Assembly (NCBI GenBank): GCA_963809325.1
Contig: CAWEIZ010000002.1
Location: 452,793-516,792, forward strand
DNA from: an uncultured Actinomycetes bacterium
Lineage (GTDB): Bacteria > Actinomycetota > Thermoleophilia > Gaiellales > JAICJC01
DNA length: 64,000 nt
Reading direction: 5' to 3'
Below the pieces are notes generated by a model. It saw nothing but the letters and a program-made list of their open reading frames with translations, was not told the DNA's origin and made no database searches. A program made the translations under genes and the position numbers. This document shows, piece by piece, positions 18,881 through 59,311 of this stretch; the first letter of the stretch is position 1; each line of letters starts with the position of its first letter.

Positions 18881-21800
18881 ATGAACGTCCGTACCGGGAG
18901 TCGTGGGCCCCCGTCCACGGCGCAGGTGCGAAAGACGGTCACCATCGTCTTCGCGGACCTCGCCGGTTCGACCGCTGTGGGCGAGCGACTCGATCCCGAG
19001 GCGCTGCGCGATCTCCACACCCGGTACTTCGCCGCCATGCGCCGGCCGCTCGAGCGTCACGGCGGCACCGTCGAGAAGTACATCGGCGACGCCGTGATGG
19101 CGGTCTTCGGGATCCCCGTGCTGCACGAGGATGACGCGCTGCGCGCGGTGCGCGCGGCCGTCGAGATGCGCGACGCGATGGCGGAGCTGAACCGCGAGCT
19201 CGAGCACGACCTCGGGGTCGGCCTGGAGCTGCGCATCGGCATCAACACCGGGGAGGTCGCGGGCATCGACGGTGTCACCGACCACGGGTTCGTCTCCGGT
19301 GACGCCGTGAACACGGCCGCCCGGCTCCAGTCCGCGGCGCCGCCCGGCGGGATCGTCATCGGCGCGCAGACCCGCCGGCTCGTCGAGGGCGCGGTCCGCC
19401 TGCGCCCGCACGGGCCGGTCGAGGCGAAGGGCAAGCGGCGGCCGCTTCGGATATGGCAGGTCGAGCGGCTCGTCGACACGACCGGCCGCTTCACGGGTGG
19501 GACGGCGGTGCCGCTCGTCGGGCGGCGGGCCGAGCTGCGAAGGCTCACGACCCGGTTCCACCGCGCGGTGGAGCGCGACCGATGCGTGCTCGTCACGGTC
19601 ACGGGGCCGGCCGGCATGGGCAAGTCGCGCATCCTGAAGGAGTTCGCCGCGGGTATCGAGGACGAGGCGACCGTCGTCGTCGGACGCTGCCTGCCCTACG
19701 GCGAGGGGATCACCTACTGGCCGCTGATCGAGATCGTGAACGACCTCGCCGGCGTCACCGGAACGCCGGAGATCGAGGGCCTGCTGGCCGGGGACTCGCA
19801 GCCGCAGGTGGTGGCGTCACGCGTCGCCGCCGCTGCCGGCCGAAGCGGGGCGAGCGCAACCGAGCAGGATGTGCAGTGGGCCGTCCGCCGCCTCTTCGAG
19901 GCGCTCGCCCGCCGCCGTCCGCTGGTGGCGGCGTTCGACGACATCCACTGGGCCGAGCCGGCGATGCTCGATCTGATCGAGCACGTGGCCGCCAACGCCA
20001 AGGCCCCGATCCTGATCGTGTGCCTCAGCCGGGGCGACCTGCTCGAGCGCCGCCCCGGGTGGGCCGCCGCCGGCGGCCGGGGCAGCGTCGTCCGCCTCGA
20101 GCCGCTGTCCGACACCGATTCGGCTCGCCTGCTCCGCCGCCTGGCCGTCCGGAGGCGCGCCAAGGTGCGGCGCGAGGAGGTCATGTACGCCGCGGAGGGA
20201 AACCCGCTCTTCCTCGAGCAGCTCGTCGCGATGCGTGCCGACGATCCGGGGGTGCGGACGCCGCCGACGATCCAGGCGCTGCTCGCCGCGCGCATCGACT
20301 CGCTCCCGGTCAGGGAGCGCCGGGTGATCGAGGCGGCGTCGATCGAGGGGCGCGGCTTCCACCGGGGGGCGGTGCGGGCGCTCGTTGACCAGAAGCGAAG
20401 CGTCGACGCCGCGCTCGCCTCGTTGGTGGATCGCGAGCTGATCCGGCCGGACCGGTCGGAGCTTCCCGGTGAGATCGGCTACCGGTTCACCCACATCCTC
20501 GTGCGCGACGCGGCGTACGACCTGCTTCCCAAGCGGCGCCGGGCGGACCTGCACGTCGCGTACGCCGACTGGCTCGTCGGACAGGACGACCCCGGGAGCG
20601 CGGCTGACGAGATCGTCGGCTACCACCTCGAGCAGGCCTACGAGTACCGCTCGCAGCTCGGGCGCGTCGGCGACGACCGCCACCGCGAGCTCGCGGCGCG
20701 GGCGTCAACCCACCTGAGCGATGCCGGGCGGCGGGCGCTGTCGGCGGGGGATCGCGGCGGCGCCTCGAACCTGCTCGAGCGCGCGGTCGCCCTTCGCTCC
20801 AAGACCGACCCGGATCGCGCGGCGCTCCTCATCGACGTGGGTGGGGTTCACCGTGAGCAGGGGCAGTTCCGGGACGCGGAGGCGGCCCTGCGCGAGGCGC
20901 GCTCGCTCGCCATCGACGCCGGCGACGGGGCACTCGAGGCACGGGCTCAGGTCGCCCGGCTGCTCTCGCGCCTCCAGGTCGACCCGGATGCCGTGGCGCG
21001 GCTCATGCGCCGGCAGGCTTCCGGGCTGGAGCAGGCGCTGGAGGCCGCCGGCGACCACGCGGGTCTGGCCCAGCTCTGGCACGTCCGCGCCCTGATCTGG
21101 TGGATCAGGGCGCAGTCCGCGGAGGCGGAGCGCGCGTGGCGGCGAGCTGCGGACGAGGCCCTCCTGGCGGGCGACGAGCGCATGCTCTTTGACGCGGTCG
21201 GCTGGGAGGCTTCATCGATGGCCATCGGGCCGATGCCGGTCGACAATGCGATCGTCCGTTGCCGCGAGATCTGCGCGGTCTTGAAGGGCGACCCGTGGTC
21301 GGAGGCGCTCGCGCTCCAGCCGCTCGCAAGTCTCCATGCCATGCGGGGTGAGTTCTCGACCGCGTTCGACTTGCTCGACACGTCCTCCGCGACACTCGCC
21401 GGGTTCGGCCCGACCGTCGATGCCGCTGTCTCGCATCCGGAGGTATTCGTTGCGACGCTCGCGGGCGACCTCGACCGTGCCGAGCGCCTCCTCAGAGTCG
21501 GCCGGCGCGTCTTGGAGCAGATGGGGGAGCGGGCGGTCCTTGCGTCCACGGAGGGCTACCTGGCACACGTTCTGCTCCTGGCCGGGCGCGACCGGGAGGC
21601 CGACCGGCTTGCGCGACGCTGCGCGGCGCTTGCAACGGAGGATGACGCGGCGCCACAGGCCGCCTGGCGTCGGGTGCGCGCCCGCGTGCTCGCCCGCCGA
21701 GGCCACACTCGAAGGGCCGTCGAGCTGGCGCGGGAAGCGGTCGAGATCGCGATGACGACCGACCATCTGAACATCCAGGGCGACGCCTGGGTCGATCTCG

Positions 21801-21973
21801 CGATCGTGTACGCGGCAGCCGGGGCTCACGACGATGCGGCCGAAGCGCTCGCGACCGCCGTGGGCATCTACGAGGCAAAGGGCAACCAGGTCAGCGCGCG
21901 GGTCTCGGCCGGCCTGTTGGAGCATCCTGTGAGCGTTCGATCGGGAAGATCACGTGGCTCGCGGGCGTCATAG
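18881..21973 (+). CDS. class III adenylate/guanylate cyclase fused to P-loop ATPase and TPR-like repeats
   Basis: Cyclase motifs FADLAGST, KYIGDAVMAVFG and GINTGEV, the P-loop GPAGMGKSR, and a long helical-repeat C-terminus. The 1030-aa ORF is intact. Confidence 0.85.
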   Translation: MNVRTGSRGPPSTAQVRKTVTIVFADLAGSTAVGERLDPEALRDLHTRYFAAMRRPLERHGGTVEKYIGDAVMAVFGIPVLHEDDALRAVRAAVEMRDAMAELNRELEHDLGVGLELRIGINTGEVAGIDGVTDHGFVSGDAVNTAARLQSAAPPGGIVIGAQTRRLVEGAVRLRPHGPVEAKGKRRPLRIWQVERLVDTTGRFTGGTAVPLVGRRAELRRLTTRFHRAVERDRCVLVTVTGPAGMGKSRILKEFAAGIEDEATVVVGRCLPYGEGITYWPLIEIVNDLAGVTGTPEIEGLLAGDSQPQVVASRVAAAAGRSGASATEQDVQWAVRRLFEALARRRPLVAAFDDIHWAEPAMLDLIEHVAANAKAPILIVCLSRGDLLERRPGWAAAGGRGSVVRLEPLSDTDSARLLRRLAVRRRAKVRREEVMYAAEGNPLFLEQLVAMRADDPGVRTPPTIQALLAARIDSLPVRERRVIEAASIEGRGFHRGAVRALVDQKRSVDAALASLVDRELIRPDRSELPGEIGYRFTHILVRDAAYDLLPKRRRADLHVAYADWLVGQDDPGSAADEIVGYHLEQAYEYRSQLGRVGDDRHRELAARASTHLSDAGRRALSAGDRGGASNLLERAVALRSKTDPDRAALLIDVGGVHREQGQFRDAEAALREARSLAIDAGDGALEARAQVARLLSRLQVDPDAVARLMRRQASGLEQALEAAGDHAGLAQLWHVRALIWWIRAQSAEAERAWRRAADEALLAGDERMLFDAVGWEASSMAIGPMPVDNAIVRCREICAVLKGDPWSEALALQPLASLHAMRGEFSTAFDLLDTSSATLAGFGPTVDAAVSHPEVFVATLAGDLDRAERLLRVGRRVLEQMGERAVLASTEGYLAHVLLLAGRDREADRLARRCAALATEDDAAPQAAWRRVRARVLARRGHTRRAVELAREAVEIAMTTDHLNIQGDAWVDLAIVYAAAGAHDDAAEALATAVGIYEAKGNQVSARVSAGLLEHPVSVRSGRSRGSRAS

Positions 21974-47630: not shown

Positions 47631-47966
47631 CTACGCCAGCACCCGGTACCAGGTGAGCATCCCGGCGGTGATGTGGTCGTTCACGTGGCAGTGGAAGAGC
47701 CAGGTGCCGGAGTCGTCGGGCACCATGTCGGCGACGACCATCGTCGCCGGGAGCAGGCTGACGACGTCCATCCGCATGCCGTTCACGGTCACGGTGTTGC
47801 CGTGCCAGTGGGGCGTGTGCAGATCGACCTCGGTGCCCATGCTCATCACGTACCAGCGCACGTGCTCGCCCCGGTGCATCGTGATCATCGGCTGGTTCCC
47901 GAACACGTAGCCGTTGATCGAGTGCATCAGGTTCGACTCCTGGAACTCCTCGTCGTCGGGATCCGG
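47631..47966 (-). pseudogene. multicopper oxidase remnant (last cupredoxin domain only)
   Basis: It carries HTPHWHG and HCHVNDHITAGM copper motifs. Recognisable similarity (PDPDDEEFQESNLMHSINGY) continues upstream of the only ATG (47927) with no start codon and runs into the next gene. Confidence 0.6.
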
Positions 47967-48054
47967 GGCCGGCGGCTGCGCGAACCCACTCGGGGCCGCG
48001 CGCCGCCGCGGGCCAATAGCGGAGGGAAGACGAGCACACGACTACGATCGAACG

Positions 48055-49534: not shown

Positions 49535-50650
49535 ATGCGCGCATCCGAGACGTTCAGGCGTGCGGGCGGTCGCCGGTGGGCATCGCTCGCGGTGGCGGTC
49601 GCCGTGACGCTCACCGTGGCGGCACCGGCCGGTGCGGCGACCTACCGGGTGGTCGACCTGGGGACGCTCGGAGGGGCGTCGAGCGCCGCAACCGACCTGA
49701 ACAACGCGGGCGCCGTGGTGGGCTGGTCGCGCACCGCCTCGGGCCATGTGCACGCGGTCGTGTGGCGAAACGGCCGAAAGACCGACATCGGGACGCTCGG
49801 CGGCCCGACCAGCATGGCCACCGGGATCAGCAACACGTTCGCCGTCGTCGGCACCGCGAGCGTCGCCGCCGGAGGGCCGCAGCACGGGTTCCTGTGGCGG
49901 GCCAACCAGGGCGCGATGCACAACATCGGGATCCCGCTTCCTGTGCGGATCGGCGACACCGGAGCGATCATCGGCAACGCCACCACCGCGGCCGGCGAGT
50001 CGGTCGCCGCCTACCGCAACCAGCACGGTTGGGTCCGGCTGCCGCTGCGCGGGTTCGACGGCAGCCACGGCGAGGACGTGAACGACGCCGGCACCGCCGT
50101 CGGAACGCTCTTCGACGATCCTCACGGCTCGGCGCCGTTCGTCTATGCGAACGGTGTGCTGACCATCCTGCCGTCCGTGCCGACCGCGGCCGAGACATCG
50201 GCCGACGCGATCAACGACGCCGGCCAGATCGCCGGTCAGACGTTCGATCCGCTCGGGATCGTGCTCTGGGACGGGATGAGCTGGCACCCGGTCCCGACAC
50301 CGGCGCTGGTCGAGCCCGAGATCCACGACATGAACGACTGCGGCCAGATCGTCGGCGCGCACCATCCCGAGGAGTTCTTCAAGCCGCACGCGTTCCTCAT
50401 CGCAAACGGGGTGGGCGTCGACCTGAACTCGCAGATCCCGGCCGGCTCCGGCTGGCGGCTCGGCACGGCCAGCGCGATCAACGACGCGGGCGAGATCGCC
50501 GGCGTCGGACGCCACAACGGCAAGCAGCACGCCTTCCTGCTGGTGCCGAGCGGGCCCCGGGGCGGGCTGTCCCTGAGGCCGCCGGGGCGTCAGGGCGACG
50601 CCCTTGGTCGCGATGGAAGGAACCTCGGTCGCCCGCCGTCTACTCACTGA
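49535..50650 (+). CDS. secreted HAF-repeat protein
   Basis: Signal peptide plus repeats (DLGTLGG..S.A..(L/I)N..G..VG, HAV/HGF/HAF). The 371-aa ORF is intact. Confidence 0.8.
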   Translation: MRASETFRRAGGRRWASLAVAVAVTLTVAAPAGAATYRVVDLGTLGGASSAATDLNNAGAVVGWSRTASGHVHAVVWRNGRKTDIGTLGGPTSMATGISNTFAVVGTASVAAGGPQHGFLWRANQGAMHNIGIPLPVRIGDTGAIIGNATTAAGESVAAYRNQHGWVRLPLRGFDGSHGEDVNDAGTAVGTLFDDPHGSAPFVYANGVLTILPSVPTAAETSADAINDAGQIAGQTFDPLGIVLWDGMSWHPVPTPALVEPEIHDMNDCGQIVGAHHPEEFFKPHAFLIANGVGVDLNSQIPAGSGWRLGTASAINDAGEIAGVGRHNGKQHAFLLVPSGPRGGLSLRPPGRQGDALGRDGRNLGRPPSTH

Positions 50651-50827: not shown

Positions 50828-52613
50828 GTGGGTGATCATCGACGTGAGACGCCAGACCCGTCGGGGCAGGGCGCCGCCGCGAGCATCGGCCACATGCCGC
50901 GCGTCGGCTCGGATTTCGCGTCGTACCGGATCCAGGGCGTGCTCGGTCGCGGCGGGATGAGCGTGGTGTTCCGCGCCGACAACATGCGCCTGGGGAACGA
51001 GGTCGCCCTCAAGGTCCTGAGCGCGGAGCTCTCGGAGAACGACGCGTTCCGGGAGCGGTTCGTGCGCGAGTCACGGCTCGCAGCCTCGATCAACCACCCG
51101 AACATCATCCCGATCTACGACGCGGGCGAGGAGGACGGCCTCCTCTACATCGCCATGCGCTTCGTCGCGGGCGCCGACCTGAAGACGCTCATCCGCCAGG
51201 AGGGCCCGCTGTCGCTGCGGCGATCCGCCGAGCTGATTTCGCAGGTCGCGCGCGGCCTCAGCGTCGCGCACCAGCGCGGGCTCATCCACCGCGACATCAA
51301 GCCTGCGAACATCCTCACCGAGCGGGCCGGGGGCGACGGCGAGACCGTCGACCACGCCTACCTCGCCGACTTCGGCCTCATGAAGCACCAGGTGTCCCGG
51401 TCGGGGCTGACCGACACGGGCCAGTTCCTCGGCACGGTCGACTACGTGGCGCCTGAGCAGGTGGAGGGGCGCCAGACCGACCATCGCGCCGACGTCTACT
51501 CGCTGGGATGCGTGCTCTACGAGTGCCTCACGGGCTCCGTGCCGTACCCGCGCGACAGCGACGTCGCGGTGCTCTTCGCGCACGTTCAGGACACGGTCCC
51601 GCGGATCACCGACCTGCGGCCCGATCTGACGCCGGCGATCGACGAGATCTGCGCCCGGGCGATGGCGAAGCGCCCCGAGCACCGCTACGCCACGGCGGGC
51701 GACCTCTCCCGCGACCTGTCGGAGCTCGCCGGTGCCTTCCGCTACTCGAGCGAGCGGCCGTCGCGTGTGACGACCGAGCCGACCATTCCGCCCACTCCAG
51801 CAACCGGCTACGGCGAGTCGCCCGACGTCGTCCGGGCTCGCGAGCCCGTCGCCCAGGAGCCGCCTTCCGGGCCGCCCGGCGATTCCGGGCGCGGCGGTGG
51901 GGTGCCTCCGAGGGCCCCTCGCGGCCGTCCGTCGACGGTCGTGATCGCGCTCGTCGTGGCCCTTGTGGCCGCGCTCGGCGTGATCGCGTTCCAGCTCACG
52001 AGCGGCAGCGACTCGGCGTCGAGCTCGGGCGGCCCGGGGACGACGGCGTCGCCGAGCGGGACGACCGGCGCCGCCGACCGGCGGCACCGGCACGACCGCG
52101 CCCACCGGCGGCCCGGTGGTGGCCGGCGATCTGCGACTGGCCATGCCGAAGAATCTGCTCGCCGACTGCACGAACGTCCCGCCGGTCGGCGCTGCGCTCG
52201 CGTCGCTCAGCTGCTCGGTGCCCTCGAACTCCGCGATCACGTACGACGTCTCGATGTACCCGGACACCGCCGCGGTGCAGGCTGTCTTCAAGACCCTGCT
52301 CGCGTCACAGGGGATCCAGACCAACACGAACGGCTGCACCAAGCGCAACTGGAACGGCGAGCGGCCCTGGTTCCATCCGACGGGCTCGCTCGGCGGGCAC
52401 GTCGCGTGCTATCTCGACGCGAACGACGACTCCGTGATCATGTGGACGCACATGAGCAAGAACGAGAAGGGCGCGCCGCCGCAGACCGACCACCGCGACA
52501 TCGTCGGGATCGCAAAGCAGCACACGCAGCTTCCGGGTGAGCTGCTCGCGTTCTGGAAGTTCTGGAGCGGTGCGAGCGGCACCGACAGCATCATCGGCAA
52601 GTTCTCGAGCTAG
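50828..52613 (+). pseudogene. transmembrane Ser/Thr protein kinase with novel Cys-containing ectodomain, one frameshift (or assembly indel)
   Basis: GTG 50828 follows GGAAGGAGG. The Hanks kinase motifs are GRGGMSVVF, VALKVL, HRDIKPANIL, DFG and APE, followed by a TM helix. After the linker the frame moves to ORF 52116..52613 (PAPPTGGTGTTAPTGGPVVAGDLRLAMPKNLLADC...). The shift lies within 52050-52090. Confidence 0.75.
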
Positions 52614-52625
52614 ATGCCGAGTCCG

Positions 52626-55520
52626 CTAGCCGGTCGTCGGCGCGCGGCCGGCGGTGCGGAGCATCTGCGCGAACATGGCGGCCGACTGCGGCCGCTGGGC
52701 CGGGTCGTCGGCGAGCGCCGTGCCGATCGCCCACCCGAGGTCGTCCGACACGGTGCCGCCCCTGGCGAGGCACGCCTGGGCGATCGCCGCGAGCTCGTAG
52801 ACGTCGCTCGCCGGCGTCGGCTCGGCGCCGCCCTGCGCCTCCGGCGCGCCGCTCTTCTCGGCGCTCGTCGCGACCGGGACGAGCAGCGCGCGGCCGTCGG
52901 CGTCGAACAGGATCGACCCGGTGCGCACGCCGCCGTGGACGATGCCCTCGCGGTGCAGCGCATCGAGCCCGCGCGCGACTCGAACGACGATGCGGATCGT
53001 CTCGTCGGCCGACGGCGTGCGGCCTCCCGCGAGCCGATCGGCCAGCGACCCGCCGTCGCACCACGCGAGGACGAGATACCTCCAGCCGTCGGCCTCGTCG
53101 GCGCGAAGGCCCGGCACGAGGCTCCGGTCCTCCACACGCGCCGCCCGCGCCGCCGCCTCGCGGAGCCGGCGCCAGTCGTCGGCGCCCCCGCCGTCCGATC
53201 GGCCGACCAGGCGCAGCGCCACCGGCATGTCGTCTGCGGTGAGCGCCCGGGCGACGGCCCCGGGGGTCTGCGCGACGCCCTCGAGCGTGTAGGGGCCGAT
53301 CCGCGTCCGCGTCTTCACCGGCGGCTCGCCGACCTGCGCGCCGTCGCGCTGCGCGGGAGGCTCGGGCTCCTCCGCCGCCTCGCCGAGCCGCTCCCGGAGG
53401 CGGTTCGCCGCCTCGGGGTCGTCCATCCGCTCGGCGACGCGGAGGGCCCGCCGCCACAGCCGGACGGCCTCGTCGCGCTGGCCCCACTCCTCGGCGCGCG
53501 CGGCCGAGCGGTCGAGGTACTCGAGCGCCTTCGAGAGGTTCCCGCTCTGGGCGTGGTAGTGCGCGAGCATCTCCATCCGCTCGTCGAGGGCGTCGGCGAA
53601 GAGCTCCTCGAACACCTCCGCCACCCGCGCGCAGAGGGCGGCTCGCCGGGCCTGGGTGAGCGTGCTGCGGGCCGCCTCCTGCAGGAGGCCGTGGCGGAAG
53701 CTGTACTCGAGCTCCGGGTACCGGCGCACCTCGCGGACGACGCCGGAGCGGAGCAGGCCCGGCATCCCCGCCTCGAACCGCTCGGCGCCGGCCACGCGCT
53801 CGAGCACGCGCGCCGGGAACTCGCGGCCGATGACGGCGGCGGTCTGGCCGAGCGTGCGCGCGTCCGGGTCGAGCCGGTCCATGCGCGCGATCAGGAGCGC
53901 GTCGAGCGAGGCGGGGAGCGCCGGGGCGGTTCCGACGGTGACGGTCCAGGCGCGCGGGCGGATCTCCTCGGCTTCGAGCGCGTAGGCCATCTCCTCGAGG
54001 TAGAGCGGATTCCCCTCCGCCCGGGCTACGAGCTCCTCGCGGGTGGTCGGGTCGAGCAGCCCCGACGCGGTGATGTCGAGCAGCTGGCCCGCCGCCCCGT
54101 CGGCGATCGGCTCGAGCGCGATCTCCTCGAACCGGTGGCCGAAGTGCGTCATGGCATGGGCGCGGAAGCGCCACGCGGGCGTGTCGTGCTCGGGCCGGGA
54201 GCTCATCGCGACCATGACGGGCGCCCTGTCGGTCAGCTCGAGCAGGTCCTCGAGCATCTGGCAGGTGGCGACGTCCGCCTCGTGCAGGCCCTCGATCGCG
54301 ACGACGACCGGCGCCTGGTGCGCGAGCCGCAGCGTCCAGTCGCAGAACGCCGCCCGCGTTCCCGCCGCCAGGTCTTCGGCGTTGCCCTCGCGCAGGAGGT
54401 CGCGGTGGTCCGGCTCCGGCTGCACCGAGAGGAGATGGCCGATATACATGAGCGCGTCGTCGGCATCGCCGTCGTAGAGCGCGGGCAGGCGCGCCCGCAG
54501 CCGCGTCCGGACGACGATCTCGCGCTCGGTGTGGTCGATCCCGAGCCACGCCCGGATCATCTCGACGAACGGCTGGTACAGGCCGACCGCTCCGTACGAG
54601 CGGCAGTCGCCCTCGAGCCATGTCACGTCCGGGCCGAGGTTCTCGCGCAGCTCGCCGAGCAGGCGCGACTTGCCGATCCCGGCCTCGCCGATCAGGAGCA
54701 GCGACTGGCCCCGTCCGGCGAGCAGGTCGTCGGCGGCCCGGCGCAGGTGCGCGGCCTCGGCCTCCCTGCCGACCAGCGGCGACTGCGTGTGGTCGCGGCC
54801 GGTCGTCTTCCGGCGCAGGACGCGCCAGGCCGACACGGGAGCCGCGCGCCCCTTGAGCGCGAGCTCGCCCATCGGCTCCAGCACGAAGCGGGGCATGAGC
54901 CGCTGCGCCGTCGTCTCGCCGGTCACGATCGTGCCGGGAGCGGCCGCCGCCTGGAGCCGCGCCGCGACGTTCGTCATGTCGCCGAGCGCCACCGCCTGGG
55001 GCGTGGCCGCCCCGACCACTCCGACGGCGGCGAGGCCGCCGTTGATCCCGATGCGGACGTTGAACTGGTCGATCTCCCAGGCCTGGCGGACGTCCCGGCC
55101 GTACGCTCCCACCATCTGGAGCAGCGCGAGCCCCGCTTCGGCCGCGCGGTCGGCATCGTCCTCGTGGGCGGCCGGGACGCCGAAGTAGGCGCACACGCCG
55201 TCGCCCATGTAGGCCTGCACCGTCCCGCCGAACTCCTCGACGACGCGGCTCATGCGCGTGACGCACTCGCCCACGAGCGCCTTGACCTCGTCGGGGCTCA
55301 TGCGCTCGCCCAGCCCGGTGGAGCCGACGATGTCCGCGAAGAGCGCGGTCACCGGCCGAAGCTCGTCACCCCCGCCGGACCCGCCTGGCTCGGTCGATTC
55401 GGATGGCTGTAACACGCAGTCGTTACGGTAGTGACTTCCGCCCGGAGTCGTCAATCGAGACTGCGCAGGATCGCTGCGCGGTTTGACATCCTGCCGGGAT
55501 CGACGCCGGGTTCTGGTCAC
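52626..55520 (-). CDS. class III cyclase - P-loop ATPase - TPR - degenerate kinase (pseudokinase) fusion protein
   Basis: Cyclase motifs FADIVGST, AYMGDGVCAYFG and GINGG, plus the P-loop GEAGIGKSR. The C-terminal kinase-like fold has VALRLV (Lys to Arg), IVHGGVRTGSILF in place of HRD..KP.N, and no DFG. The start is uncertain (ATG 55520 or GTG 55415). Confidence 0.85.
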   Translation of the reverse strand: MTRTRRRSRQDVKPRSDPAQSRLTTPGGSHYRNDCVLQPSESTEPGGSGGGDELRPVTALFADIVGSTGLGERMSPDEVKALVGECVTRMSRVVEEFGGTVQAYMGDGVCAYFGVPAAHEDDADRAAEAGLALLQMVGAYGRDVRQAWEIDQFNVRIGINGGLAAVGVVGAATPQAVALGDMTNVAARLQAAAAPGTIVTGETTAQRLMPRFVLEPMGELALKGRAAPVSAWRVLRRKTTGRDHTQSPLVGREAEAAHLRRAADDLLAGRGQSLLLIGEAGIGKSRLLGELRENLGPDVTWLEGDCRSYGAVGLYQPFVEMIRAWLGIDHTEREIVVRTRLRARLPALYDGDADDALMYIGHLLSVQPEPDHRDLLREGNAEDLAAGTRAAFCDWTLRLAHQAPVVVAIEGLHEADVATCQMLEDLLELTDRAPVMVAMSSRPEHDTPAWRFRAHAMTHFGHRFEEIALEPIADGAAGQLLDITASGLLDPTTREELVARAEGNPLYLEEMAYALEAEEIRPRAWTVTVGTAPALPASLDALLIARMDRLDPDARTLGQTAAVIGREFPARVLERVAGAERFEAGMPGLLRSGVVREVRRYPELEYSFRHGLLQEAARSTLTQARRAALCARVAEVFEELFADALDERMEMLAHYHAQSGNLSKALEYLDRSAARAEEWGQRDEAVRLWRRALRVAERMDDPEAANRLRERLGEAAEEPEPPAQRDGAQVGEPPVKTRTRIGPYTLEGVAQTPGAVARALTADDMPVALRLVGRSDGGGADDWRRLREAAARAARVEDRSLVPGLRADEADGWRYLVLAWCDGGSLADRLAGGRTPSADETIRIVVRVARGLDALHREGIVHGGVRTGSILFDADGRALLVPVATSAEKSGAPEAQGGAEPTPASDVYELAAIAQACLARGGTVSDDLGWAIGTALADDPAQRPQSAAMFAQMLRTAGRAPTTG

Positions 55521-57769: not shown

Positions 57770-59311
57770 CTAGGCGGCCGCCGCGCCGACCACCCGGTCG
57801 CGGCCGGCGGTCTTGGCGCGGTAGAGCGCCGCGTCAGCCGTGCGGACGAGCTCGACCCGGTCGTCGGCGTCGGCAGGGAACACGGCCCAGCCGATCGAGG
57901 CCGAGAGCGAGTGGCCGGCGCCCGGCTCGATCGCGAGCGACCGGACCGCCTGGCGCGCGCGGTCGAGCAGGTCGGCGACGCCGTCGGGATCGGTCGTCTC
58001 GAGCAGCACCGCGAACTCCTCGCCGCCGAGGCGGTAGATCCGGTCGGAGCCGCGGAGCACCTGCCGGATCGCCTCCCCCGCCCGGCGCAGCACGGCGTCT
58101 CCCTCCGGGTGCCCGAACGAGTCGTTCACGTCCTTGAAGTGGTCGAGGTCGACCATCGCGAGCGTGAACCCGAGATCGCGCCGCTTCGACACCGCGACGC
58201 GCCGCCGGAGCTCCGACTCGAACGTGCGCCGGTTCGGAAGGCCGGTGAGGGCGTCGTGGCCGGCCGCGCGCTCGAGCTCCTCCTGGCGGAGCACCGTCCG
58301 CCAGAGCGCCGCGAGGTGGCCGAGCATGAGGTCGAGCGCGTGATGGTCGAGCTCGTCGCCGCGTCCCGCCGCGAAGCAGACCGACGCGTGCAGGCCCTCG
58401 CCCGCCGTGTCGACCGGGAGCGTGATCCGCGCCAGCCCGTGCGAGCCGTGCCGGGGCGGGGCGCCTTCGGCGATGCTCAGACAGGCGGCGCCGATGGCCT
58501 CGCGGGGCGCCATGTGCGCGAAGCCGATGAGCTGGCTGCGCGTCGTCGCCTCCTTCGCCCGGCTCGACCAGGCGAGGACCTGCTCGATCTGCCGGGCCCA
58601 GCGGCCGTGCCGGTCGTGGCGGGAGTCGGCGTCGACGGCGAGCCGCCAGGCCTTCTGGAGGAGCAGCGCGCCTCCGGCGAGGAGCACGCCCATGCCGATG
58701 AGGGTCGCCGCGAGCACCGCGATGTCCGAGAGCCGCGTGGCGTGGGCGGCGTCGGCGTCGGCCCGGGTCGCGACCGTGGTCAGCCGGTTCGCGCTCGCAG
58801 CGAGGCGACGCTCGAGGGCCGCGCCGCGCCGGTCGACGCCGGCGGGCGGGGGAGCGGTCGGACGATCCGCCGATGCCGTCGATGCCTCCCAGCGCTGAAT
58901 GGCGGACGCCAGCGCCTGTGCTTTGCCGACCGATGCCCCTGCGGCGCCCGCCGCGCGAACGGTGCGGGCGAACCGGGCGATGCCGCGCTTCGTCGCCGCC
59001 CGATCCGCGGTCAGGGCGTTCGCGTCGCGCGCGTCATGCGAGAGCTGCCAGGCGAGGCGATGGTTCATCTCCTGCTGAATCGAGCCGAGCAGCGCCGTCG
59101 CGGCGGCCTGGGCGTGGTCGCCGGCCGTCGCGCGATGGGATGCATCCGATCGGTAGATGCCCGTCGCCACGCTCGTGGCCACGATCGCCACGATGATGCC
59201 CGCGGTGGCAACGGCCCAGAGCAGGGCGAACCGCCGTACCTGATTGGCGATCCGGGGCTGCGCGGGTACGCGTGGCTGGTCGAGCTGTCGAACGGGGGAA
59301 TCCGACCGCAT
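57770..59311 (-). CDS. membrane-anchored diguanylate cyclase (GGDEF; GGEEF site)
   Basis: Two TM segments flank a helical sensor region, followed by a GGDEF domain (DALTGLPNRR, DHFKDVNDSFGH, RLGGEEFAVLL). Confidence 0.85.
   Translation of the reverse strand: MRSDSPVRQLDQPRVPAQPRIANQVRRFALLWAVATAGIIVAIVATSVATGIYRSDASHRATAGDHAQAAATALLGSIQQEMNHRLAWQLSHDARDANALTADRAATKRGIARFARTVRAAGAAGASVGKAQALASAIQRWEASTASADRPTAPPPAGVDRRGAALERRLAASANRLTTVATRADADAAHATRLSDIAVLAATLIGMGVLLAGGALLLQKAWRLAVDADSRHDRHGRWARQIEQVLAWSSRAKEATTRSQLIGFAHMAPREAIGAACLSIAEGAPPRHGSHGLARITLPVDTAGEGLHASVCFAAGRGDELDHHALDLMLGHLAALWRTVLRQEELERAAGHDALTGLPNRRTFESELRRRVAVSKRRDLGFTLAMVDLDHFKDVNDSFGHPEGDAVLRRAGEAIRQVLRGSDRIYRLGGEEFAVLLETTDPDGVADLLDRARQAVRSLAIEPGAGHSLSASIGWAVFPADADDRVELVRTADAALYRAKTAGRDRVVGAAAA

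Follow-up and report, generated by a model that had tools for sequence, protein, structure and literature searches.

A selectively maintained pseudokinase at the C-terminus of a cyclase-STAND protein encoded beside a receptor-type Ser/Thr kinase in uncultured Gaiellales

Organization of the fusion gene

The window analysed here is a stretch of 64,000 nucleotides from an uncultured soil bacterium of the Actinomycetes (Gaiellales; JAICJC01; assembly GCA_963809325.1, contig CAWEIZ010000002.1, positions 452,793–516,792). Its reverse strand carries a fusion gene, present in the open reading frame (ORF) calls at 52626–55520 (964 residues), whose product has a class III cyclase, a STAND (AAA_16) NTPase and a short helical repeat ahead of a Hanks-type pseudokinase of ~220 residues. 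Selection maintains this C-terminal domain, a true pseudokinase carried by a cyclase-STAND scaffold. The gene converges on that of a receptor-type Ser/Thr kinase on the forward strand, and the two stop codons are separated by a spacer of 12 nt (52614–52625), as had been noted in a preliminary description of the locus.

The fusion protein most likely starts at GTG 55415–55413 and contains 929 residues, and not the 964 of the full ORF given previously, since the start codon occupies the same column in all close relatives. A stop codon lies immediately 5' of this column in L011, L013 and L014 (related loci are numbered L, proteins P), and a conserved DELRPVTALF motif follows shortly downstream of the GTG. 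The coding region with its stop codon spans 52626–55415 (reverse strand) and has a GC content at third codon positions (GC3) of 0.93. Directly 5' of the proposed start (55416–55460), the hexamers TTGACG and TACCGT, with a spacer of 18 nt, were found by eye. This promoter candidate was not called by the consensus scanner and serves as a lead only; it would imply a leaderless mRNA.

The cyclase catalytic domain (residues 55–226 in the 964-residue numbering; 54843–55358, reverse strand) is recognized by Pfam Guanylate_cyc (PF00211, E-value 2.4e-23) with 83.1 bits, above the gathering score of 21.9, and its predicted fold matches CyaB (PDB code 3r5g) with a Foldseek template modelling (TM) score of 0.85. 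Catalytic residues were assigned by alignment to CyaB (3r5g) and Cya2 (2w01) and by a family-wide motif census. Both metal-binding aspartates are kept (FADIVGST, 55317–55340; AYMGDG, 55197–55214), as are the transition-state Asn and Arg (LGDMTNVAARL, 54954–54986), and all of these residues are conserved across the family. The canonical base-specifying pair (Lys and Asp/Thr for ATP; Glu and Cys/Gly for GTP) is not found in this cyclase: Ala, preceded by Gln, takes the place of Lys, and Val that of Asp/Thr, in fused and unfused relatives alike. Since these residues are non-canonical throughout the family, the sequence assigns no product to the enzyme, be it cyclic AMP (cAMP), cyclic GMP (cGMP) or another nucleotide. 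The base-specifying residues of Mycobacterium tuberculosis Rv0386 are reportedly non-canonical as well (Gln/Asn; Castro et al. 2005).

The STAND NTPase (AAA_16, PF13191; residues 248–437 in the 964-residue numbering; 54210–54779, reverse strand) is detected with an E-value of 2.4e-21 and 77.4 bits (cut-off 32.6). Its Walker A motif is intact (GEAGIGKS, 54666–54689). The second acidic residue of Walker B (VVVAIEG, within 54273–54308), which is usually needed for hydrolysis, is replaced by Gly in the subclade of the window, compared with AIED, LED or IDD elsewhere in the family according to the motif census; this loss could slow the off-switch. A helical arm, a winged-helix region and five TPR-like helices follow (53370–54101, reverse strand), as defined by the secondary structure of an AlphaFold2 model with predicted local distance difference test (pLDDT) values mostly of 80–95. 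The five helices (53370–53654; residues 588–682 in the 929-residue numbering) are consecutive and amount to about 2.5 repeats. Their match to TPR_2 is below threshold (E-value 0.0057, 17.1 bits compared with 27), and a PDB sequence search with the NOD/helical region returned no match. The cyclase/ATPase/TPR layout proposed earlier is thus confirmed by Pfam for its cyclase and AAA_16 parts, but the TPR part is limited to these five helices.

The full-length model has a mean pLDDT of 82.8 and resolves, in the 929-residue numbering, the cyclase (17–202), the NTPase with the helical arm (to ~480), a winged-helix-like segment (502–584), the five helices and, after a disordered linker (684–700), a bilobal C-terminal domain (704–924). 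The linker is rich in Pro, Ala and Glu (53316–53366, reverse strand) and has pLDDT values below 50.

The C-terminal pseudokinase and the convergent receptor kinase

The pseudokinase (residues 739–959 in the 964-residue numbering, ~220 residues; 52644–53306, reverse strand) was identified from homology, fold, motifs, the ratio of nonsynonymous to synonymous substitution rates (dN/dS) and a kinase tree. The Pfam Pkinase profile (PF00069) matches only residues 794–876 (profile positions 53–135 of 263; E-value 1.1e-6), with 28.7 bits, below the gathering score of 31.7. The C-terminal 248 residues match bona fide Ser/Thr kinases of ~280 residues with an E-value of 1e-27. Modelled alone with AlphaFold2 from an 85-sequence alignment, the domain reaches a pLDDT of 89.4 and a predicted TM score (pTM) of 0.85, and its best Foldseek matches in the PDB are the kinase domains of M. 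tuberculosis PknI, PknB and PknA (E-values 1e-13 to 1e-12, TM 0.66–0.76). The kinase-like domain of about 270 residues suspected from the sequence therefore does have a kinase fold, although its folded part is shorter (~220 residues) and is preceded by the disordered linker.

An alignment of 39 full-length family members and five active relatives defines the motifs. The G-loop is degenerate (GVAQTPGAV, 53244–53303), strand β3 has VALR instead of VAxK (53202–53222), the catalytic loop reads HGGVRTGS instead of HRDxKPxN (52914–52937) and the DFG position is occupied by VPV (52863–52886); the earlier motif readings (AQTPGA, VALR, HGGVRTGS, no DFG) were all correct. Retained are the αC Glu (53133–53171), APE (52833–52850), the αF Asp and DPxxRP (52689–52709). 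Compared with the nearest active kinases, the activation loop is ~16 residues shorter and the αG region ~27 residues shorter. All 39 members, down to 47% identity, lack the G-loop, the β3 Lys, the Lys and Asn of the catalytic loop and DFG. The HRD Asp is missing in all but three (P0147, P0148 and P0149, which keep HGD); its position is Gly, Ala, Ser or Val in most members and Glu in some of the 47% clade. A bilobal kinase fold devoid of these catalytic motifs marks the domain as a pseudokinase.

In close pairwise comparisons, dN/dS is 0.15–0.31 for the pseudokinase, 0.05–0.12 for the cyclase and 0.07–0.19 for the NTPase and helical parts. The linker (residues 716–737 in the 964-residue numbering) evolves about neutrally, with a ratio of 0.75–2.7. 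Therefore, the pseudokinase is kept by selection, approximately twice as loosely as the catalytic parts. Stand-alone pseudokinases were considered when the initial homology search returned only fragments, and were rejected; the fragments are truncated or frameshifted gene calls, as shown by L001 and by the full-length clusters. A profile search of a representative library with the pseudokinase alignment was swamped by proteins with multiple kinase domains, whose scores add up; there the fusion family corresponds to about three clusters at 50% identity, and nothing further was revealed.

The neighbouring gene, previously described as a single ORF for a transmembrane Ser/Thr kinase (50828–52613), does encode a canonical kinase with a transmembrane helix, but in two frames. 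The first (50828–52069, forward strand; Pfam Pkinase E-value 3.9e-48) contains the motifs GRGGMS (50945), VALK (51002), HRDIKPAN (51287), DFG (51368) and APE (51446), the transmembrane helix (51938–51997) and a linker rich in Ser, Gly and Thr. The ectodomain (52116–52613, forward strand), with 165 residues and four cysteines, lies in another frame and has no match in Pfam, NCBIfam or PDB sequence searches. Both parts were delineated by tblastn with the intact orthologue of L002 (586 residues), of which residues 1–413 align to frame 2 (50828–52069) and a further part to frame 3 (52116–52610). On the L002 contig, CAVPWG010000004.1, neither the kinase gene nor the fusion gene is broken. The frame break, at ~52066 (within 52029–52116), is due to one extra base compared with L001 in a short G/C run of the linker that follows the transmembrane helix. 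Kinase domain and ectodomain are contiguous in a single frame in 13 related loci, and the frameshift of the window is either an assembly error or a recent pseudogenization. A comparable lesion affects the fusion gene of L001, a 91% identical relative, in which a one-base deletion at ~9962 (equivalent to ~53922 of the window) splits the gene into calls of 486 and 419 residues; the neighbouring kinase of L001 is intact.

The window encodes a second protein of the same layout (18881–21973, forward strand; 1030 residues), for which Pfam reports a cyclase, AAA_16 and a long TPR region (TPR_12) and no kinase-like domain, as stated in the preliminary description. It had been regarded there as a paralogue of the fusion protein, but the two are only 38% (cyclase) and 26% (NTPase) identical.

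Distribution, gene neighbourhood and origin of the fusion

Uninterrupted fusions of 907–972 residues are found in ~40 protein clusters (47–96% identity), all of them traceable to Gaiellales metagenome-assembled genomes (MAGs). A scan of one genome per GTDB species located 12 fusion loci, in MAGs from independent assemblies labelled Gaiellales, Thermoleophilia or "uncultured Actinomycetes"; several related MAGs carry MFD sample names. In public databases the proteins are named "class 3 adenylate cyclase", "AAA family ATPase, partial" or "hypothetical protein". Some members (P0139, P0145 and P0147; the N-termini at L003 and L017) carry an N-terminal CxxC...CxxC zinc ribbon.

The pairing of fusion and kinase, observed in a single genome before, proved to be largely conserved. 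At 13 of 14 distinct loci with a pseudokinase at least 46% identical to that of the window, the next gene after the fusion encodes an orthologous, convergent kinase; across these loci the kinase domain is 83–98% identical and the ectodomain 40–90%. Housekeeping genes (GGT, hydrolase, GGDEF, ThyX and SOD) surround the locus in conserved order, and the called genes around it include no evident mobile elements or effectors. At L003/L018 and L017 the pair of fusion and kinase persists, though the genes that flank it in the window (GGT, hydrolase, GGDEF and HAF-repeat) are not found. On this comparative evidence, the association of the fusion with the adjacent receptor kinase is evidently not accidental.

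The closest unfused cyclase-STAND relatives are 50–55% identical to the fusion protein, and Ser/Thr kinase genes adjoin all five that were examined. At L020, a cyclase-STAND protein of 687 residues is encoded tail-to-tail with, and 13 nt from, a soluble active kinase of 285 residues; at L023, the unfused gene stands beside a small kinase and a divergent receptor-type kinase. The protein of L103/L104 (700 residues) is followed by a kinase of 720 residues, and that of L105 (679 residues) is convergent with a receptor kinase of 654 residues, after which comes a small kinase of 252 residues. L106 encodes an FHA–zinc-ribbon–cyclase-STAND protein (P0187, 5001–7607) convergent with a kinase of 547 residues. 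A small active kinase gene thus adjoins three of the five, and a receptor-type kinase orthologous to the neighbour in the window is found at four, with kinase domains 53–56% identical to the latter. By comparison, no kinase gene was found in the flanks of 79 distant cyclase–AAA_16 loci (27–41% identical), of which 52 had usable flanks (at least 3 kb downstream or at least 2 kb upstream). Together, these frequencies (13/14, 5/5 and 0/79) support the proposed link of the fusion protein to kinase signalling.

The pseudokinase is not, however, derived from the neighbouring kinase. In a neighbour-joining tree with 100 bootstraps, the pseudokinases, the pseudokinases together with the small kinases, and the receptor kinases each form a group in 100 of 100 replicates, and the pseudokinases, which have a single origin, belong with a separate lineage of small soluble kinases. 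The outgroup was PknB, with a sequence that may deviate in places from the deposited one. The small kinases at the unfused loci are 54–64% identical to P0012 or P0049 and 34–36% identical to the pseudokinase of the window, and no additional small kinase was seen in the flanks of the fusion loci. The simplest history makes the pseudokinase a copy of a small soluble Ser/Thr kinase that was captured and is now catalytically dead: a module of cyclase-STAND protein, receptor kinase and small kinase would have existed before the small kinase was fused once, in one Gaiellales lineage, and lost catalysis. A member of the small-kinase family (P0012) also occurs at L022 (8001–13146) with two FHA proteins and a Pkinase–HTH_77–TPR protein of 1028 residues, which is a different kinase/STAND-like combination.

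An N-terminal FHA domain, with or without the zinc ribbon, is present in sister proteins (22 of the top 120 matches) and never occurs together with the kinase-like domain. FHA domains bind phosphothreonine. The mutual exclusion of the two suggests alternative couplings of the same scaffold to kinase signalling.

Proposed coupling to kinase signalling and related systems

The organisms are uncultured Gaiellales, and we infer every functional step of the following model from their genomes. As a whole, the data are best explained by a receptor kinase that acts through the pseudokinase on the STAND-cyclase, an explanation to which we give an even chance. The fusion would act as a cytoplasmic signalling protein, with the NTPase as switch and the cyclase as output. 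The adjacent receptor kinase would be the input and would sense an extracellular signal, as suggested by its variable and fast-evolving ectodomain. It would engage the pseudokinase module by pairing of kinase domains, or by phosphorylating the pseudokinase or the linker. The pseudokinase, at the usual sensor position of STAND proteins, would couple the state of the kinase to the NTPase switch, and engagement would relieve autoinhibition of the STAND core. The core could then exchange nucleotide and oligomerize, which would join the cyclase domains into the dimers needed for catalysis, and cyclic nucleotide would be made. Activation through oligomerization is proposed on the basis of the established behaviour of STAND proteins (MalT, AfsR) and of the obligate dimer of class III cyclases; inducer-driven multimerization is described for MalT-type STANDs (PMC4381067, PMC6468293, PMC10936776).

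Several observations weigh against the action of the receptor kinase through the pseudokinase. The full-length model, with a pTM of only 0.56, does not give the inter-domain arrangement. A Thr/Ser of the shortened activation loop is conserved only within the subclade of the window, and the 39-member alignment contains no family-wide phospho-acceptor in this loop, so that no phosphosite is proposed. Moreover, the pseudokinase diverges fast, without visible co-variation with the neighbouring kinase; between L003 and the window, identity is 83% for the kinase domain of the neighbour, 67% for the cyclase-STAND part, 47% for the pseudokinase and 40% for the kinase ectodomain. If the frameshift in the window is real, the partner kinase of this genome would be without its sensor domain. 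Finally, in three lineages (L016, L006/L007 and L005) the fusion gene is followed not by the kinase but by a co-directional operon of two RimK-like ATP-grasp proteins, an APH-family phosphotransferase and an ABC exporter, the last found at L005 and scored only where the contig reaches (L005, 10914–16121; L006, 3067–7221; L007, 3239–5909; L016, 8779–11996). These genes look like a small biosynthetic or export operon, which may be regulated by the cyclase protein there; L005 retains the orthologous kinase 7 kb from its fusion gene.

A more specific form of the model, which we think unlikely, is that kinase-domain pairing and not phosphotransfer gates the STAND switch: the pseudokinase would heterodimerize with the activated receptor kinase and thereby trigger oligomerization and cyclic-nucleotide synthesis. 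If so, the fusion protein would parallel, in bacteria, the animal receptor guanylyl cyclases with their regulatory pseudokinase and the plant NLR (nucleotide-binding leucine-rich repeat) protein ZAR1 with its pseudokinase adaptor; its origin would lie in a three-gene module, of which a once-separate small kinase was captured and inactivated.

The pseudokinase might also act independently of the receptor kinase, as an autonomous sensor or autoinhibitory lid that responds to a small molecule, a nucleotide or an intramolecular surface, with the gene neighbourhood reflecting shared regulation or ancestry. The module does occupy the sensor position after a truncated TPR, and both the three lineages without an immediately adjacent kinase and the lack of obvious co-variation would be accounted for. 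Its combination of a β3 Lys-to-Arg change with a retained αC Glu is the pattern for which ATP binding has been proposed in ActPs2 pseudokinases (PMC12599244), but with the loss of G-loop, metal-binding Asn and DFG, canonical nucleotide binding is unlikely. The kinase genes beside all five unfused relatives and none of the 79 distant homologues, as well as the FHA domain of the sister proteins, which points to phospho-dependent coupling, also argue against this independence, which we regard as somewhat unlikely. Retention of an atypical catalysis, such as non-canonical phosphotransfer or nucleotidyl transfer, is improbable. WNK and SelO are precedents for kinases with relocated catalytic residues, and the HRD-position Asp of P0147, P0148 and P0149, or the Glu of some members of the 47% clade, could be read in the same way; however, the β3 Lys, the G-loop, the Lys and Asn of the catalytic loop and DFG are absent from all 39 members, most have Gly, Ala, Ser or Val in place of the HRD Asp, and the activation loop and αG are truncated.

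STAND NTPases with an N-terminal effector and a C-terminal sensor are common as anti-phage receptors (PMC13581612), and inactive kinase and cyclic-nucleotide cyclase domains are known from NTPase-based conflict systems of Actinobacteria (PMC7159879). By analogy, the pseudokinase could be an integrated decoy that guards host kinases, with the cyclase producing an alarm nucleotide; the non-canonical base-specifying residues and weak matches to PycC would fit. Yet the only matches in PADLOC-DB are generic and at the level of domains, to PycC (cyclase) and PD-T4-6/MkoA (kinase), with no specific anti-phage match among them. Together with the housekeeping synteny, which shows no sign of mobile elements or effector genes in the gene calls, they make a defence role unlikely; the partners, moreover, are ordinary receptor kinases conserved across the family, and we consider an immune-type sensor highly improbable. 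Decay of the C-terminal domain to a remnant, or an origin of the fusion in faulty assembly or annotation, is scarcely credible. Single-base frameshifts do occur in the dataset (the kinase of the window and the fusion gene of L001) and the Pfam kinase score is below threshold, but uninterrupted fusions in ~40 clusters and in 12 species-level MAGs that were assembled independently, a dN/dS well below 1 next to a linker with a ratio of ~1, and a confidently predicted fold all speak against decay or artefact.

The preliminary description was not aware of any account of such an arrangement. A C-terminal pseudokinase on a cyclase-STAND protein did not turn up in the literature searched, but the theme is shared by other systems. 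One is NCBIfam TIGR03903 ("TOMM system kinase/cyclase fusion protein"), a curated family in which a Hanks kinase, a class III cyclase and a STAND module form one polypeptide. Residues 20–670 of the fusion protein (929-residue numbering) align to positions 286–930 of this profile (E-value 7.6e-80). The kinase of TIGR03903 is N-terminal (profile positions ~3–273), whereas the fusion protein starts ~20 residues before its cyclase, with no N-terminal kinase domain, and its kinase-like domain is C-terminal, dead and of separate origin. Since only the cyclase-STAND part aligns and the score of 269.2 bits is far below the cut-off of 705.75, the fusion protein is not a member of TIGR03903. No TOMM (cyclodehydratase/YcaO) genes are among the annotated neighbours, although no search was aimed at them.

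Animal receptor guanylyl cyclases (GC-A, GC-C) likewise combine a pseudokinase, the kinase-homology domain, with a class III cyclase in one protein, and their pseudokinase controls the cyclase allosterically and subject to phosphorylation (PMC9672810, PMC10400071, PMC3014569). Their domain order is opposite and they lack a STAND module, whereas the fusion protein is soluble and the receptor function resides on a separate kinase; the two are clearly independent and convergent. In the plant ZAR1–RKS1–PBL2 resistosome, a pseudokinase adaptor lets a STAND/NLR switch sense what state a kinase is in. That adaptor is a separate protein and part of an immune system, and the likeness is by analogy only. 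Streptomyces AfsR is regulated by the Ser/Thr kinase AfsK. In AfsK–AfsR and in MalT, as proposed for the fusion protein, a STAND (NOD and TPR) switch controls an output domain (PMC10936776, PMC4381067, PMC6468293), but this output is DNA binding and not a cyclase, and AfsR and MalT have no kinase-like domain. The scaffold belongs with the actinobacterial cyclase-STAND proteins (surveyed in PMC2447327), among them M. tuberculosis Rv0386, Rv1358 and Rv2488c, which have the same N-terminal class III cyclase, AAA_16 STAND module and helical C-terminal region. They end in a long TPR or a LuxR-HTH, in contrast to the five helices and pseudokinase of the fusion family, which occurs only in Gaiellales, within a gene module that includes kinases.

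A 2025 review of bacterial pseudokinases recognizes seven families (ActPs1–3, GLW, CP1, DYD and DLHK) and does not mention a cyclase, AAA, STAND or TPR partner (PMC12599244). The pseudokinase described here resembles families of this review in being a Hanks-type actinobacterial domain with all three catalytic motifs degraded. By description, its features are mixed: the activation-loop deletion is as in ActPs3, the loss of the G-helix as in ~60% of ActPs1 and the β3 Lys-to-Arg change as in ActPs2. The described families have PQQ, transmembrane segments or PAS as partners, of which PQQ and transmembrane segments are absent from the fusion protein. The MviN pseudokinase of M. tuberculosis is a substrate of PknB and recruits an FHA protein. 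The NTPase conflict systems of Actinobacteria in which Kaur et al. 2020 (PMC7159879) noted inactive kinase domains are of a different kind.

While the theme of kinase, cyclase and STAND in combination was known, a well-defined, lineage-restricted pseudokinase family with a traceable origin is new, and coupling of pseudokinase and cyclase, familiar from animal receptor guanylyl cyclases, arose independently in bacteria. Bacterial pseudokinases are numerous and almost untested experimentally (PMC12599244); the fusion ties one to an enzyme with an easily measured product. The active, unfused relatives in sister lineages provide a natural before-and-after pair with which to ask what survives when a kinase loses catalysis, and by what connections Ser/Thr kinases of Actinomycetota feed into cyclic-nucleotide signalling.

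Three further genes of the neighbourhood deserve mention. The gene downstream of the kinase (49535–50650) encodes an HAF-repeat protein (TIGR02913, E-value 9e-27) and has the same position in close relatives. An ORF at 47631–48041 (136 residues), whose sole match is to the C-terminal Cu-oxidase_2 domain of multicopper oxidases, is possibly a fragment of a gene. A GGDEF (diguanylate cyclase) gene (57770–59311) lies three genes away from the fusion gene, in synteny that is kept in close relatives, which places two second-messenger enzymes in one neighbourhood.

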